DNA of 64,000 nucleotides, taken from assembly GCA_963664305.2 (NCBI GenBank), contig CAXXLV010000002.1, forward strand, positions 736,001 through 800,000, written 5' to 3'. A program made the position numbers. Positions 25,879-34,800 of the stretch are shown here, one piece after another (within the stretch, counting starts at the first letter, position 1; each line of letters begins with the position of its first letter). This DNA is from an uncultured Aliarcobacter sp. (GTDB lineage: Bacteria > Campylobacterota > Campylobacteria > Campylobacterales > Arcobacteraceae).

Positions 25879-28800
25879 TAATTTATCCTTTAATATTTCA
25901 AAAGGCAAGGCTTCGGCTTTGCCTTTTTTTATGCCCAAAAAGATATAATTTCTCCCAAAGAAATTTTAAAGGCTCTATTTTGAATACAAAAACTATTGGA
26001 ATTGTTGGAGTTGGAAATGTAGGTTCAACTTTAGCTTTTACACTTGCAACAAAAAACATATGCAATACCCTACTTTTAAAAGATGTAAGAGAAAATATTG
26101 TACAAGCAATGGCACTTGATATTTCTCAAGCTACAAATGCAGCACGTAGTAAAACTTATGTAAAAGCATGTTTGAATAACGATGATTTCAAAGATTGCGA
26201 TATTATTGTAATTACTGCTGGAATTGCAAGAAAGCCTGGAATGAGTAGAGATGATTTACTAATAACTAATGCAAAAATCATGACTTCTGTAATAAATGAT
26301 GTTTTACCAAATAATAAAAATGCAATCTTTATCATCGTTTCAAATCCTCTTGATGCTATGGTTTACACTGCACTTAAAGCTTCTAATCTTCCTAGAAATA
26401 AAGTACTTGGAATGGCAGGAATTTTAGATAGTGCAAGAATGAGTCATTTTATCTTTGAAAAACTAGGATACGGACAAGGACAAATTGAAGCTTCAGTTAT
26501 GGGTGGACACGGTGATACTATGGTTCCACTAGCTGATTTTTCTACAGTTGCTGGAGTAAAACTTGAAGAACTTTTATCAAAAGAAGATATAGAAGACATC
26601 ATAAATAAAACAAAAAATGGTGGAGCTCAAATAGTAAAACTTCTTGAAACAGGTTCAGCATATTATGCACCTGCATATTCAACTTCACTTATGATTGAAG
26701 CAATAATAGAAGATAAAAAGAAAATTTATCCATGTGCTATTATGCTTGAAGGTGAATATGGATATGAAAATATAGTTTCAGGAGTTCCAGTTATGTTAGG
26801 TTCTAATGGAGTTGAAAAAGTTATTGAATTAAATTTAAAAGAAAAACAAAAAATAGAATTTTCTAAATCTGTCTCTTCGGTTCAAGAATTAGTTGATATT
26901 TTAGAAGAAAAATTTTTTAATAATTAAAAGGAAATATTATGAAACAAACATTTGAAGTTTTAAATGTAAAATGTGGTGGTTGTGCAAATACATTAATCAA
27001 ATCTTTAAAAGATGAATTTGGTGATATTGAAGTTAATTTAGATGTAACTCCAAGACAAATTACTCTTGATATAGAAGATGCTAAAAAAGAGGCTTTAAAA
27101 CAAAAACTTAGAAGTTTAGGTTATCCTTTAACTACTGATGAATTAAGTGGATTTGAGAAAGCAACAACAACTGCAAAAAGTTTTGTTTCTTGTGCAATTG
27201 GAAAATTTGACGTCGCAACAAAAAAATAGACTAGTTTTTCATAATAACTAAAGGATTTATAACACTTCTTTAGATAAAATTACGCCCTTTGTAAAAGATA
27301 AAAGTATTTAGGTAGAAAACATGAAAGTAGTTATTGGAGTAGTAGGTAATGATATTCACGTAGTTGCAAATCGACTAATTGATATATCACTACAAGCAAG
27401 AGGTTTTGAAGTTTTTAATCTTGGTGTTAATACATACCTTGAAGAGTTTATTGATGCAGTTATTGAAACAAATGCTGATGTTTTATTAATCTCTTCATTA
27501 AATGGTGAAGCAGAAGGTTGGTGTAGAGACCTTCCTATTTTAAAATCAAAATATAAAAATCTAAAAGATGTTGTATTTATGTTAGGTGGAAACCTTGCCG
27601 TTGGTGAAGGTGATGCTAGTGTTATCGTTCCTAAATTTAAAAACTATGGTTTTGATTTAGTATTTCACCAAGTTGATTTAAATACAGGTCTTGATGAATT
27701 AGAAAGATATTTAAAGGAGAGAAATTGAGTTTACTGCAAGAAGAAAGAAATATAATTGTACAAAATAAATATGCAGATAATTTTGACTTTGCAGAAATTG
27801 AAGAGTTTATAAAAAACGCTTCAAAAAATTTATTTATTTCTCACCACTTTAAAAATTCTAATAAAATGTTAGTTCAACCAAGAGGTGGATTTCCAACTTA
27901 TAAAAAAATGTTCTCATTATATGAATATTTTGTTGGTGCAAATGTAGATGTACTTCCATGTACAATTGACTCAAATACAAGATTAAATGACTATGCAACA
28001 AGTGCTAAGATGTTAAAACTTTCAGAAGAGAATGAAGTTGATATGTTAAATGGTTATCCACTTGTAAATCATGGGTATAGAACAACTAGAAAAATGATGA
28101 CTCATTTTGATAAACCTATTTCTCTAAGACATGGAACACCAGATGCTAGACTTTTAATCGAAACTGCCTTAGGTTCTGGTATTTTTGAAATTGAAGGTGG
28201 ACCAATTACTTATCTTTTACCATATTCAAAAAACTTTCCACTTGATAAAGCGTTTATGTATTGGAAATATGTAGAAAAAATTTGTGCAAATTATTCAAAA
28301 TTAAATGAACCAATCAATAGAGAATCATTTGGACCTTTAACAGCAACATTAGTTCCACCTTGTATTACAATAGTTATTCAACTTTGTGAAATGCTTTTAT
28401 CACTTGAAGAGGGAGTAAAATCTTTCTCTGTATCATTCTCACAAACTGGTTCAATGATTCAAGATATTGTAACAGCTAATGTTTTAAGAAAAATGGCAAA
28501 ACATTATGCAGAACAAATTGGATGTGGAGATGCTAGAATAAATCTAGTATATCACCAATGGATGGGTGCTTTCCCTTCAAATAAAGATTATTCAGAATCA
28601 TTAATTAATACTTCAACGGTAATTGCTATGATGGTAAAAGCTGATAAAATTATTACAAAAACAAGAGATGAGTCTTTTGGTATTCCAACACGAGAATCAA
28701 ATGCAAAAACAGTTGCAAATACTCAATATACTTTAGGAATGTTACATGGAATTCCTACAATCACTGATGAGATGGAAGAAGAAATCCTAACAGAAGAAGT

Positions 28801-31800: not shown

Positions 31801-34800
31801 GATAAAAATAAAATCAATAAAGAAGAGCTAAAAAGAGAGCTTATTTCAAAATAAAAAGAATAATTTTTAATTATTCTTTTTAAAATCTTTAAAATACTTG
31901 ATTGAAGTCAATAAACTCTAAATAATATTTTTATATAATCCTTTTATCTTATATAAAAGGATTATTCATGAAAAAAATAATTATCGCTACAACTTTATTA
32001 ACTGCATGTGTTGCTTTCGCTAACCCTTATGCAAAATGTGCTACATGTCATGGTGCAAACGGTGAGAAAGCTGCTTTAGGTAAATCAAAAGTTATCAAAG
32101 ATATGACTAAAGCTGATTTTGTTGCTGCATTAAAAGGTTACCAAGATGGAACTTATGGTGGAGTTCAAAAAGCATTAATGGTTGGTCAAGTTAAAGATAT
32201 GACAGAAGCAACTATGAATGAGATTGCTGATTTAATCATCAAATAATCCTCATTATTCAAAAACTAGAAGACTAGTTTTTGAATATTTTGCTCTTTTTTA
32301 TCTCTTCTAATATATTCATTAGTTCTTTCTTTTCATCTAATAGCTGTTTTATTAATATATCTTTTTCGTCATCAATTTCAGGAATATTTTTTTGTTCTAA
32401 TATTTTTCCTAAATGAAATTCAAAAAGACCTTTTTCAATAGAATAATCAACTTTTAAACACTCTATTGTGATTTGTGGTTTATCATTTCCTAAACCATTT
32501 GTTATAAAAAGTTTTTTTATTTGTTTAATAGTATATGTTAATTTATCATCTTTTATAATAGGTTCAAGTAGCTCTTTTTTCCAATAATTATTATTTTCTT
32601 TTTCTAATATATTGATTTTCTTTAATAAAACTTTATCAAATAACTCTTTATTTATAGAAAGTTTATACACCCTATTCCTTAAATTTTTTGTTTACTATAA
32701 CTATAAATTACTAAATTAAAAATATTACAACTAGCTTTAATTATAAAATGTTACAATCACAAAAAAAATTATTAAGGAAATTTATATGTTGAAAAACTAT
32801 AAACAATTATCATTTATTTTTTTAATTACGATTTTATTTACTGCTTGTTCAATTAAAGAACCAATTGTTATTCCAAAAGAGAGTGATATAGTTGAACTTT
32901 CAAAAAAAGCAAAAGATGATTTTATTAATCAAAATAAAGCTACAAATGATTATTTTATTAAATACTTTAAACCTTGGGATTCATCAAAAGTTTCATATCC
33001 TAAACTTGAAGCTATGTGGGGACAATCATATAAATATAAAAATGTTTATTTAGAAAATCATAAATTAGCAACAAGTGAATGGTTTGATAAACAAATAGCA
33101 AACTCTAATTTTGATGAATATAATGTTGTGCCTAAAAAAGCTATTATGTTAAAAAATGCAAATGTTAGAGTTCTTCCTACAAATTCACCTATGTTTTATG
33201 ACCCAACAAAACCAGGAGAAGGTTTTCCATTTGATTATAATCAAAACTCTTTAATTAAAATAAATACTCCAATTATTGTTTCTCATCTTTCAAAAGATAG
33301 AGCTTGGGCTTATATGGAGTCAAGTACAGTTGGAGGTTGGGTAGAAATAAATAGTATTGCTTTTGTAGATGATAATTTTATAAAAGAGTTCAAAAATTCT
33401 AACTATTATGTAAGTATTAAAGAAAAATTTCCTATTTATGACCCAGTATTTAGAGAATATGTAAAAGTTGCAACAATTTTCCCTAAAAAAGATGATAAAT
33501 ATATAATTGCAAAAACAGATGATAATCAAAAAGCAAAAATCACTTATATTTATTTAAATGAGGATGAAATTGAAGCTATGCCTATAGCTTATACTTCTGA
33601 AAATAGAGTAAAAATTTTAAATCAACTTCTGGATGAGCCTTATGGTTGGGGTGGATTATTAAATAATAGAGATTGTTCAAGTTTTACACAAGATTTTTTT
33701 GTTCCATTTGGAAAATATTTACATAGAAATTCTAAATCACAAACATCAAATGGAAATTATTTAGATATGTCAAAATTGACAATTGATGAAAAAAAAGATT
33801 TTATTAAAAAACATGGTGTACCTTTTTCTACATTAGTTTATTTAAAAGGTCATATTATGTTATATGCAGGTATTAAAGATAAGGAACCATTAGTAATACA
33901 CAATATTTGGAGTGTAAGATTAAAAGATAGTTCAGGAAGAAAATATAGAAATATTATTGGTAAAGCTACAATAACTACACTAGAACCAGGAAAAGAATTA
34001 AAAGATTTTGATGAAGATAACAATATCTTACGAAGAGTTTTAGGTATCACAATTTTATAAGCTTTAGAAAAATCTAAAGCTTATTTCTAACTTTTTCTTA
34101 AATAAAATATCCTATAAATCATAGGCACAAAATATAGATTTAAAACTGTTGCCCATAAGATTCCAAAACCTAAAGAAACAGCCATTGGTTGAAGTATTAA
34201 AGCTTGTCCAGATGCGAAAAATATCAATGTCCCAAGTCCTAATACAGTTGTAATTGAAGTTAATAAAATTGGTCTTAATCTCATTTTTGCTAAAGATACC
34301 AGCTCTTCAAGATTTTTTGCTTTTTTAATAAAATCCATCATGATAATTCCATCATTTACAATAACACCAGCAAGTCCTACCATTCCAATTAAACTTGGCA
34401 TTGTAATATTTATATTCATGATTAAATGCCCTATTAAAACACCTAAAATTGATAAAGGAATTGTTGTTAATATTATCAAAGGTTTTAAAACTGAATCAAA
34501 CATCCAAATAAGTGCCATAAAAATTAAAACAATTGCAATAATTGCAGCTTGTGCCATCTCTCTTTGCACTTTTTCATTCTCTTCTTGTTCACCTTTTATT
34601 GAAATATTTACATTTTTTCTAAGTTCTATAATTTCATCATTAATTTTTTCAAATAACTCAGCTGATGTTATTTTTGTAAGTGATGCAGTTACACTTATAA
34701 TTTGTTCACTATTTTCTTTAAAAATTTGTGAATAAGAAGGTATTTTTATAAAATCTGCAACTTCTTTTAATAACACTTTTTCATTGTTTGAAGTGTTTAT

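Follow-up and report, generated by a model that had tools for sequence, protein, structure and literature searches.

The first-pass annotation had placed a four-gene cassette at positions 27321-31854 on the plus strand of the window, which is the whole analysed stretch of 64,000 nucleotides from an uncultured Aliarcobacter sp., and all four ORFs were found there:

27321..27728, plus strand, glmS: B12-binding sigma subunit of glutamate (methylaspartate) mutase, 135 aa (NF002612, PF02310, PDB matches)
27725..29089, plus strand, glmE: catalytic epsilon subunit of glutamate mutase, 454 aa (PF06368, TIGR01503, 6h9e_B)
29086..30270, plus strand, glmL/mutL-like: predicted accessory (reactivase-type) protein, 394 aa (PF13941)
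30283..31854, plus strand, ligase: predicted stand-alone ANL (adenylate-forming) enzyme, amino-acid type, 523 aa (PF00501, TIGR03098, TIGR01733)

The product of the last gene is proposed to be a 3-methylaspartate-activating enzyme. The glmS/glmE and glmE/glmL overlaps are 4 bases each, and 12 bases separate glmL from the ligase gene. In two wastewater studies, RNA libraries yielded contigs that span all four genes, including the glmS/glmE and glmL/ligase junctions; these are counted in favour of expression of the cassette.

In profile searches, GlmS scored 165.9 bits with NF002612, above the cut-off of 110, and 47.9 bits with PF02310; glutamate mutase S chains in PDB were matched with an E-value of 7e-22. 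The D11-x-H13-x-x-A16 motif of GlmS is conserved in 72 of 73 orthologues. GlmE has 383.7 bits with PF06368, is slightly below the cut-off of TIGR01503 (370.1 against 390.1 bits), and matched PDB chain 6h9e_B with an E-value of 1.1e-79. When aligned with the solved enzyme, R53, R86, R135, H136, E157, Y163, and Y167 of GlmE correspond to R66, R100, R149, H150, E171, Y177, and Y181, respectively. All seven checked glutamate-site residues, whose roles we take to be those in the C. cochlearium structure, are retained in 74-75 of 75 orthologues. GlmL matched PF13941 across residues 6-291 (104.8 bits), has 394 aa against 450 positions in the family profile, and reached only 82.7 bits with NF040745 (cut-off 475). 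A glmL gene was found in 80 of 81 sources (80 loci and the window). As judged from sequence, glmS-glmE-glmL encode a real coenzyme-B12-type glutamate mutase plus its GlmL helper. A known cobalamin adenosyltransferase was not found in 38 of the 39 Campylobacterota hosts of the cassette.

Conservation and genomic partners of the cassette

The gene order glmS-glmE-glmL-ligase, earlier described as fixed, is the same in 67 out of 67 usable loci, namely those that extend 3.1 kb or more upstream of the ligase gene. Identities to the window proteins in these loci are 67-99% for GlmS, 75-95% for GlmE, 62-90% for GlmL, and 71-87% for the ligase, in agreement with the ranges given before. GlmE was found in 37 of 401 Campylobacterota genomes and the ligase in exactly these 37, and only one of nine other genomes of the same genus has the cassette. 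The patchy distribution across phyla was also confirmed, with hosts in Campylobacterota and Gammaproteobacteria, a Parasphingorhabdus MAG, and a Rhodothermales MAG. The sequences characterize the ligase as an amino-acid-type adenylate-forming enzyme that is never apart from the mutase. Many hosts of the cassette are marine and wastewater bacteria, and the gene set is mobile.

No methylaspartase was recognized in the own genome, as previously claimed: the best match of MAAL_C has 14.1 bits and MAAL_N has none, in a genome that is 99.96% complete and has 8000 bases outside the searched sequence. A full-length methylaspartase match was also absent from the 401 Campylobacterota genomes searched, 37 of them cassette-bearing, and from 16 further cassette-bearing genomes. 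The clostridial methylaspartate pathway, composed of glmS/mutS, glmL/mutL, and glmE/mutE followed by methylaspartate ammonia-lyase, has the three mutase genes in common with the cassette. The GlmE substrate-site residues are alike, and the cassette GlmS is over the NCBIfam cut-off. Unlike in clostridia, the cassette genomes searched are without methylaspartase and have the ligase and an RraA-like gene as fixed partners instead. The clostridial gene order is S-L-E, whereas that of the cassette is S-E-L, with a shorter GlmL far under the equivalog cut-off.

The link to the RraA-like gene was strengthened to co-distribution, as all 37 cassette genomes but only two of 38 related genomes without the cassette have this gene; it is therefore regarded as part of the module. 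In the own genome it is located on contig C2:537672-538148, the position reported earlier, about 225 kb from the cassette, and the coordinates place it no more than 3 kb from glmE in 30 of the 37 cassette genomes. Its R97 and D98 are invariant and form an intact Arg-Asp dyad, while E. coli RraA has R-Q there. For HMG/CHA aldolase, the consulted part of PMC5065237 gives Arg-123 as essential and Asp-124 as metal binding. The RraA-like protein is probably a small decarboxylase-like protein of the active class II aldolase/decarboxylase type, and its putative substrate is 3-methyloxaloacetate. The AspC/TyrB-type aminotransferase noted before in Gammaproteobacteria (NF006719, 575.8 bits) was found within an inserted island in 27 gammaproteobacterial loci and was absent from all Campylobacterota and Vibrio loci examined. 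A threonine ammonia-lyase is encoded in the own genome, as had been stated (TIGR01127, 501.1 bits, over the family cut-off).

There is no dedicated carrier protein for the ligase. Genome-wide checks of the own genome revealed one PP-binding gene and no condensation domain, as the first-pass annotation had it, and 14 of 37 cassette genomes have only one PP-binding gene. No conserved small ORF adjoining glmS and no fused forms among the close relatives of the ligase were found.

Family and substrate pocket of the ligase

The ligase has a PF00501 domain (204.5 bits) and no further domain. It was earlier called a stand-alone NRPS-type adenylation enzyme, and "stand-alone" is correct, but NRPS-type is not the best description: the enzyme appears less NRPS-like, as the best-scoring family is TIGR03098, exosortase-A-associated ligase, AMP-forming, with 426.2 bits over the full length versus 216 bits for the NRPS A-domain model TIGR01733. 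Both scores are below the curated cut-offs (592.35 and 317.4, respectively). To our knowledge, the function of TIGR03098 is uncharacterised. The ligase and its relatives P0124 and P0126, which are fused to Orn/DAP-type decarboxylase domains, have in common with TIGR03098 the hallmark GLTEAFRSTYL loop with Arg-330 and the FD[YFA]G motif. Unlike TIGR03098, the ligase scores below the cut-off, is only 32-35% identical, and has no decarboxylase, carrier, or polysaccharide gene near the cassette.

At GrsA positions 235, 236, 239, 278, 299, 301, 322, 330, and 331, the pocket residues of the ligase are D, Y, N, S, A, S, M, R, and S, respectively. The closest pocket among the relatives is D-Y-N-A-T-S-M-R-S of P0124. 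The ligase was compared with VinN indirectly, via E. coli EntF and numbering equivalences taken from a partly consulted review (PMC11253843). According to the same part of the review, D230, F231 (GrsA 236), S299 (301), and K330/R331 of VinN recognise 3-methylaspartate as a beta-amino acid. The beta13-beta14 loop of VinN is shortened. In this alignment, the ligase carries D235, Y236, S301, and R330, i.e., the Asp, a bulky aromatic residue at 236, Ser at 301, and a basic residue in the beta13-beta14 loop, so its pocket positions seem to resemble those by which VinN binds 3-methylaspartate. Unlike VinN, the ligase has Ser at 331, and its similarity to VinN in the PDB sequence search is modest (E 1.1e-32). 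The likeness to the P0124 pocket would match the VinN/VinO logic with the alpha-carboxylate left free. D235 and R330 argue for an amino-dicarboxylate-type substrate generally, not for 3-methylaspartate specifically, but we infer that the ligase acts on 3-methylaspartate. The vicenistatin starter-unit pathway (VinH/VinI mutase, VinN, carrier VinL, and decarboxylase VinO) likewise combines a mutase with a stand-alone adenylation enzyme. The cassette differs in having no carrier protein, PLP decarboxylase, or polyketide synthase, and in its Gram-negative marine and wastewater hosts rather than Streptomyces. An AF2 model of the ligase (pLDDT 90.1) was in Foldseek equally near to A domains, CoA ligases, and amide synthetases.

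Proposed role of the module and alternative explanations

The explanation we favour, with a probability of about 50%, is that the window carries four of five genes of a mobile module composed of the mutase, a 3-methylaspartate ligase, and an RraA-like decarboxylase. In the full module, the RraA-like gene would be divergent from glmS-glmE-glmL-ligase, with the AspC/TyrB-type aminotransferase as an addition in Gammaproteobacteria. The mutase would produce (2S,3S)-3-methylaspartate. Because there is no methylaspartase, the ligase would be the committing step for this product, and the ATP spent would pull the unfavourable mutase equilibrium. 3-Methylaspartate would be bound as in VinN: the conserved Asp would hold its amino group and the loop Arg its alpha-carboxylate, so that the C4 carboxylate would be adenylated. 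Since no dedicated carrier is encoded, the acceptor of the acyl group would be a universal one, a thiol (CoA or housekeeping AcpP) being the most likely. By transamination, 3-methylaspartate would give 3-methyloxaloacetate, to be decarboxylated by the RraA-like protein to 2-oxobutyrate, along a route that published work regards as real. The ligase and the RraA-like protein would replace the usual next enzyme after glutamate mutase, and the cassette suggests that the rare amino acid 3-methylaspartate has a use not yet described. Against this explanation, the two fates of 3-methylaspartate are not steps of a single linear pathway, an unusual situation in a compact mobile module, and the genome with its threonine ammonia-lyase needs no other source of 2-oxobutyrate. 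Ser at position 331 where VinN has Arg, the occurrence of D235 and R330 throughout the TIGR03098-like superfamily, the scores under the cut-offs of both TIGR03098 and TIGR01733, the indirectness of the VinN alignment, the lack of preference in Foldseek, and the 8000 bases outside the search also count against it.

An unlikely alternative is that the module serves B12-dependent 2-oxobutyrate supply, as in MetaCyc L-isoleucine biosynthesis III, with the ligase as a side activity, salvage, or regulatory enzyme. Mutase, aminotransferase (in Gammaproteobacteria), and the oxaloacetate-decarboxylase-type RraA-like protein would cover its three steps, from glutamate via 3-methylaspartate and 3-methyloxaloacetate to 2-oxobutyrate. 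The co-distribution of the RraA-like gene, its retained catalytic R-D dyad, and the aminotransferase in the 27 islands are consistent with it, and the route itself is documented physiologically. In the parts of the reports consulted, the route has no assigned transaminase or decarboxylase genes and no ligase (bioRxiv 10.1101/2025.08.26.672309; 10.1101/741918). Methyloxaloacetate reportedly decarboxylates spontaneously. It also leaves no role for the most tightly linked partner, the ligase, present in the same 37 genomes and always after glmL; no Campylobacterota or Vibrio locus examined has the aminotransferase, and the threonine ammonia-lyase is already there. Still less probable is that the ligase forms 3-methylaspartyl-CoA, a beta-amino thioester, which would lose NH3 to give mesaconyl-CoA, the module being a methylaspartase-free entry into mesaconyl-CoA, methylmalyl-CoA, or citramalyl-CoA routes (a bacterial methylaspartate cycle). 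Ammonia elimination from beta-alanyl-CoA is known chemistry, and the top-scoring family of the ligase bears an acyl-CoA ligase name. A cluster on contig C1 of the own genome (about 216.8-224.2 kb) encodes, besides a mesaconyl-CoA hydratase-like protein (PF19315, 77.9 bits), an 839-aa ANL-CitE fusion, a class I fumarase, and two more CitE-like lyases. The haloarchaeal methylaspartate cycle is similar in using glutamate mutase outside fermentation and in such hydratase-like and CitE-like genes elsewhere in the genome; the module differs in being without methylaspartase and CoA-transferase. The distribution of the hydratase cluster does not follow that of the cassette, as 13 of 37 cassette genomes versus nine of 38 genomes without the cassette have it; it occurs in 9/9 genomes of the window's genus, and in 0/8, 0/4, and 0/1 cassette genomes of families f4, f7, and f12, respectively. 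Moreover, the module has no ammonia-lyase candidate, and the RraA-like partner would have no role.

There is similarly little probability that the ligase is carrier-free and that either a small amine or the amino group of the substrate itself takes the acyl group from the adenylate (McbA-type amide synthesis or OleC-type ring closure), giving a new small molecule such as an amide, dipeptide, or four-membered lactam of 3-methylaspartate. OleC represents stand-alone ANL enzymes that close beta-lactone rings. The searches for a carrier, a condensation domain, a fusion partner, or any other conserved neighbour were negative, a module in four phyla must rely on a universal or internal acceptor, and one of the best fold matches is that to the amide synthetase McbA (TM 0.84). 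This match is no better than those of CoA ligases, the closest relatives in sequence are ligases linked to a carrier or a decarboxylase, and the conserved Asp should keep the amino group away from the adenylate. It is equally improbable that the ligase has a different substrate (glutamate, aspartate, 2-aminobutyrate, or some unrelated acid) and is linked to the mutase for some other reason. The pocket residues are also present in relatives outside the mutase context, the assignment of 3-methylaspartate is indirect, and the first-pass annotation had the same caveat. On the other side, the ligase accompanies the mutase in the same 37 of 401 genomes, always behind glmL, and the linkage holds from Campylobacterota and Gammaproteobacteria to the two MAGs at 71-87% identity, a pattern that would be difficult to understand if the ligase did not depend on the product of the mutase.

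Organization and distribution of the cassette

The cassette is composed of four genes on the forward strand, given here together with the ORF directly 5' of them:

26939-27229, + strand: HMA-domain protein of 96 aa (metal site C-G-G-C), directly 5' of glmS
27321-27728, + strand: glmS, methylaspartate mutase S subunit (NF002612, 165.9 bits, cut-off 110)
27725-29089, + strand: glmE, methylaspartate mutase E subunit (PF06368, 383.7 bits, cut-off 26.6)
29086-30270, + strand: glmL, MutL/GlmL protein (PF13941, 104.8 bits, cut-off 27)
30283-31854, + strand: ligase, AMP-binding (PF00501, 204.5 bits)

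The genes overlap by 4 bases at each glmS/glmE/glmL joint, and a gap of 12 bases precedes the ligase ORF. A scan of species-representative genomes yielded 80 loci (designated by L numbers) with ligases 71-87% identical to that of the window. They span Arcobacteraceae, Sulfurimonas, Vibrio, Neptuniibacter, Amphritea, Colwellia, Halioglobus and Paraglaciecola, as well as a Parasphingorhabdus MAG and a Rhodothermales MAG. The order glmS-glmE-glmL-ligase was the same in all 67 loci with enough upstream sequence, and the ORFs and their families agree with the four-gene cassette of the first-pass annotation. GlmE was found in 37 of 401 evenly sampled Campylobacterota genomes, i.e. about 9%, and the ligase in the identical 37, in a sample whose relatives are non-independent observations. 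Only one of nine other genomes in the genus of the window has both proteins. The flanks of the cassette vary from lineage to lineage, and in Neptuniibacter it forms an island in a run of housekeeping genes that is conserved apart from this insertion, with queG on one side and orn on the other. These features, and a ligase identity of 71-77% across phyla, support horizontal spread of the cassette, in line with the earlier description of a horizontally spread unit.

In the window, genes for monomeric isocitrate dehydrogenase, malate dehydrogenase and the HMA-domain protein lie on the 5' side, and genes for a small cytochrome c, an NlpC/P60 protein and an RND pump on the 3' side. In the locus comparison, none of these flanking genes was kept with the cassette beyond the lineage of the window, and no conserved neighbours other than the RraA-like gene and an aminotransferase gene were identified. 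The HMA-domain ORF occupies its place only in the nearest relatives (L008, L016 and L021) and is thus outside the module, meaning the cassette plus the RraA-like gene. Contigs from four wastewater metatranscriptomic libraries (two studies) cover 26-29 of 30 bins at 92-99% likeness and bridge glmS/glmE (27501-27766) and glmL/ligase (30070-30486 and 30093-30487); coming from libraries of relatives, they indicate presence and not one single transcript. The promoter scan gave promoter-like sites more rarely than in shuffled sequence, and the search for riboswitches and leader RNAs gave merely two sub-threshold sRNA matches, 5' of the mdh gene. The sole clear terminator-like hairpin is at 32254-32285, 3' of the 92-aa cytochrome c gene (31968-32246, + strand). 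This gene also follows the ligase in 33 loci besides the window, and its depth in the RNA libraries is far above that of the cassette.

Several loci have peculiar arrangements. In L090, from a Campylobacterota genome (G316:C16, 10179-15761), glmE and the ligase are about 5.7 kb apart, and the interval encodes a RelE-like toxin as well as proteins with ankyrin repeats and with a zinc ribbon. An IS110-family transposase gene adjoins glmS in L095 (12864-13823), and the RraA-like gene is 14 kb off. In Arcobacteraceae loci (L006:12988-14148; L011:1576-3672), a TsoY-family (seleno)protein (NF047644, 514.5 bits) is encoded 3' of the cassette, and a gene for a 698-aa DinB_2/FGE-sulfatase/methyltransferase protein with ovothiol-synthase-like build adjoins the RraA-like gene. 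The cassette proteins of L004, a record labelled Candidatus Paceibacteria MAG, are 86-99% identical to those of the window, as would be expected if a contig of Arcobacteraceae had been misbinned.

Mutase subunits and the adenylate-forming ligase

GlmE matched the solved Clostridium enzyme (6h9e_B) with an E value of 1.1e-79. Residues R66, R100, R149, H150, E171, Y177 and Y181 of C. cochlearium GlmE, which we take to be its glutamate-binding site, are all identical in the aligned protein and are conserved in 74-75 of 75 orthologues. GlmS keeps Asp and His of the base-off/His-on B12-binding motif Asp-x-His-x-x-Gly, but in 72 of 73 orthologues the motif ends in Ala in place of Gly. The proteins depart from the canonical mutase families in that GlmE is narrowly short of the equivalog cut-off (TIGR01503, 370.1 bits, cut-off 390.1), and GlmL is short (394 aa, PF13941 alignment limited to residues 6-291) and far under the thresholds of NF040745 (82.7 bits, cut-off 475) and TIGR01319 (62.2 bits, cut-off 204). 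Judged by its sequence, the enzyme is a genuine glutamate (methylaspartate) mutase, EC 5.4.99.1.

The ligase has ANL domains alone, and no fused forms were found among its close relatives. It was previously called an NRPS-type enzyme, and in the PDB sequence search NRPS A domains are indeed the top matches (LgrA, E 5e-67), with VinN at 1.1e-32, much as stated there. The designation itself is not the best one, as the match to the NRPS A-domain model TIGR01733 is 216 bits, below the cut-off of 317.4, and the best family is TIGR03098 (exosortase-A-system-associated AMP-forming ligase; 426.2 bits, cut-off 592.35, residues 6-517 of 523). By these profile scores, the ligase is placed as a sister group of TIGR03098, outside the family proper. 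One ligase match, G091:C1:198530-200098 in a sampled Campylobacterota genome, is reported with one in-frame TGA and a frame of 861 aa on read-through, while the ORF call gives a normal ORF of 521 aa.

Specificity positions were placed with an alignment of E. coli EntF and 75 orthologues. In GrsA numbering, the pocket of the ligase is D235, Y236, N239, S278, A299, S301, M322, R330 and S331; in the majority of orthologues, positions 278 and 299 are P and T. The Asp binding the amino group and the C-terminal Lys were both said to be kept: the former is D208 of the ligase and invariant, and the latter, part of a PSDK stretch, falls on A10 of LgrA in the alignment, its placement versus EntF being ambiguous. 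VinN, as described in a review (PMC11253843), binds 3-methylaspartate as a beta-amino acid with D230 (GrsA 235), the bulky F231 (236) and S299 (301), and its K330 and R331 sit in a shortened beta13-beta14 loop. Mapped indirectly via EntF, the ligase resembles VinN in its Asp, the aromatic side chain at 236, S301 and a basic position in the loop; its Arg is at position 330 and position 331 is Ser, in contrast to R331 of VinN. VinN-type enzymes have a beta13-beta14 loop shorter by one residue than that of A domains for alpha-amino acids; the loop of the ligase is gapless against domain 1 of LgrA and has a 2-residue gap against domain 2 in HMMER, and is gapless against EntF in MAFFT. The pocket argues for an amino-dicarboxylate in general, which would bind through its amino group and one of its carboxylates and be adenylated at the other; 3-methylaspartate is not singled out.

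More distant relatives, of 32-35% identity, also have the GLTEAFRSTYL loop including the Arg, and some of them are fused to Orn/DAP-type decarboxylase domains (P0124 and P0126), to acyltransferase-3 domains or to glycosyltransferases. The pocket of P0124 is nearly the same as that of the ligase (D-Y-N-A-T-S-M-R-S), and P0124 and P0126, both TIGR03098-like, have the Asp-235/Arg-330 pocket in common. By analogy, this suggests that the exosortase-A ligase/carrier/decarboxylase trio may work like VinN/VinL/VinO, with loading of an acidic amino acid through its side-chain carboxylate and subsequent decarboxylation.

RraA-like partner and proposed mechanism

An RraA-like gene was found in 56 of the 80 loci, and in 36 of 67 it is divergent from glmS and at most 600 bp away. 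In a set of 75 Campylobacterota genomes from the same families, the gene occurs in 37/37 with the cassette versus 2/38 without it (G273 and G360), which bears out the proposed tie between the two. According to the coordinates, it lies less than 3 kb from glmE in 30 of the 37. The genome of the window has its orthologue at C2:537672-538148, about 225 kb from the cassette, where a homologue had been noted (C2:537672-538151, about 226 kb); it is 78.6% identical to the linked copy of locus L009. All 32 aligned RraA-like proteins of the module keep R97 and D98, and E. coli RraA has R-Q at the same site. In HMG/CHA aldolase, Arg-123 is essential and Asp-124 binds the metal, according to PMC5065237. 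The RraA-like protein therefore probably acts as an enzyme and does not regulate RNase E. No informative RraA fusions were found, the sole match being a 426-aa protein. Four RraA-like paralogues are on C2 of this 2.78-Mb genome (33352-33801, 275216-275665, 537684-538130 and 672142-672564); the three unlinked to the cassette have R-D-x-x-E, and R-D-T-I-N is found in the copy of the cassette type. The RraA-like gene is tail to tail with a gene for an AspC/TyrB-type aminotransferase (NF006719, 575.8 bits) in 27 loci of Gammaproteobacteria.

Methylaspartate ammonia-lyase had been reported as absent, and the profile searches agree. In the genome of the window, which is 99.96% complete and of which 8000 bases of contig C1 were outside the search, the best match to MAAL_C (PF07476) is 14.1 bits, and MAAL_N (PF05034) has no match. 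The 401 Campylobacterota genomes gave partial matches only (25-46 bits, at most positions 84-218 of the 249-position profile), in 33 genomes of which six are cassette-bearing, and these were taken for other enolase-superfamily proteins. Another 16 genomes with the cassette, from 13 Gammaproteobacteria, one Parasphingorhabdus and two Arcobacteraceae, gave one partial match of 27.9 bits. The claim of one carrier protein and no condensation domain was reproduced, as the genome encodes a single PP-binding protein (ACP) and no condensation domain was found in it; nor is there a PP-binding domain in the ligase or nearby. As 14 of the 37 cassette-bearing Campylobacterota also have a single PP-binding gene, no dedicated carrier travels with the cassette. 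Such a carrier was rejected on these counts and because no conserved small ORF was found 5' of glmS in the related loci.

Glutamate mutase equilibrium lies toward glutamate. In the most likely mechanism, to which we give a probability of about one half as a whole, the mutase would by homology make 3-methylaspartate, and the ligase would adenylate it, probably at C4, and hand it on to a universal thiol acceptor. This ATP-driven step would stand in for methylaspartase as the pull on the equilibrium, and the RraA-like enzyme would decarboxylate 3-methyloxaloacetate formed by transaminases from 3-methylaspartate. The module could instead serve mainly for the supply of 2-oxobutyrate, the isoleucine precursor, via methylaspartate and methyloxaloacetate, a route that bioRxiv 10.1101/2025.08.26.672309 and 10.1101/741918 document with its genes unassigned. 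The aminotransferase and the RraA-like protein fit this route; however, the ligase would have no role in it, and the genome already has a threonine ammonia-lyase, as first annotated (501.1 bits in the profile match). The ligase could also open a CoA route to mesaconyl-CoA that bypasses methylaspartase, and in favour of it contig C1 has an operon-like cluster:

C1, about 216800-224200 (L102:6800-14233): CitE-like lyase, 839-aa ANL-CitE/HpcH fusion and another CitE-like lyase
C1, same cluster, about 216800-224200: mesaconyl-CoA hydratase-like protein (PF19315, 77.9 bits), class I fumarase and DUF5718 protein

This hydratase cluster is present in 13/37 cassette genomes versus 9/38 without the cassette, and since its distribution does not track the cassette, this reading was rejected as unlikely. 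The cluster was found in 19 of 23 genomes of the family of the window (f1), whether cassette-bearing or not, and in every cassette-free member of its genus, and is missing from most cassette genomes of other families; it is a family trait. Two other readings concern the ligase itself. It may act on another substrate than 3-methylaspartate, or it may be a carrier-free amide or lactam synthetase. In a Foldseek search with its AF2 model (pLDDT 90.1, pTM 0.91), A domains, CoA ligases and the amide synthetase McbA were equally near (TM 0.81-0.86), so that the fold search cannot tell the acceptor. It seems rather improbable that the five genes are a complete and self-sufficient, undescribed B12-dependent pathway with carrier-free ANL activation of the C4 carboxylate of 3-methylaspartate, in which the RraA-like enzyme, by pyruvate-enolate chemistry, would act on or with the activated intermediate to give a new small molecule (a cyclic amide or lactam, an amide, or a C-C coupled dipicolinate-like acid), feeding no known mesaconate or isoleucine route. 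As a corollary, the Campylobacterota hosts would get adenosylcobalamin by an unknown route.

The components are of known kinds, and the pairing of a mutase with an adenylation enzyme is known from vicenistatin. No published account was found in the literature searched of a fixed five-gene module with an RraA-like partner and wide distribution, nor of such a module without methylaspartase, carrier and decarboxylase. Glutamate mutase is known from fermentation or the methylaspartate cycle, via methylaspartase, and from antibiotic building blocks in actinomycetes. The module, with two fixed partners and no methylaspartase, in about 9% of the sampled Campylobacterota (37/401) and many marine Gammaproteobacteria, would be a third setting if the proposal is true. 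Its solution would give a function to a B12 requirement in marine and wastewater bacteria and offer a first way into the large family of TIGR03098-like ligases, and the module could supply genes for the 60-year-old, so far geneless route from glutamate to 2-oxobutyrate.

Supply of adenosylcobalamin

The lack of adenosyltransferases in the Campylobacterota hosts is a separate question of cofactor supply. In profile searches of the 37 cassette-bearing Campylobacterota, PF01923, which takes in both PduO and EutT, was found in none and the CobA-type PF02572 in one (G091). Neither family was found in two further Arcobacteraceae cassette genomes, so that both are absent from 38 of 39 Campylobacterota hosts, including the genome of the window. 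At least one of them is present in all 14 non-Campylobacterota cassette genomes (CobA type in 13, PduO type in 8), and hence the searches work. The Campylobacterota hosts either import adenosylcobalamin intact or have an unknown adenosylating enzyme; the 38 hosts without both families are what the corollary of an unknown route refers to. The ligase as the missing adenosyltransferase was rejected, because its motifs for adenylation are complete and because a CobA-type or PduO-type enzyme accompanies the cassette in each of the 14 genomes searched outside Campylobacterota. The single cobalamin riboswitch of the genome (C2:150748-150950, 83 bits) lies 5' of genes for a 1450-aa CobN-like protein, an ExbB-like protein and a DUF2149 protein.
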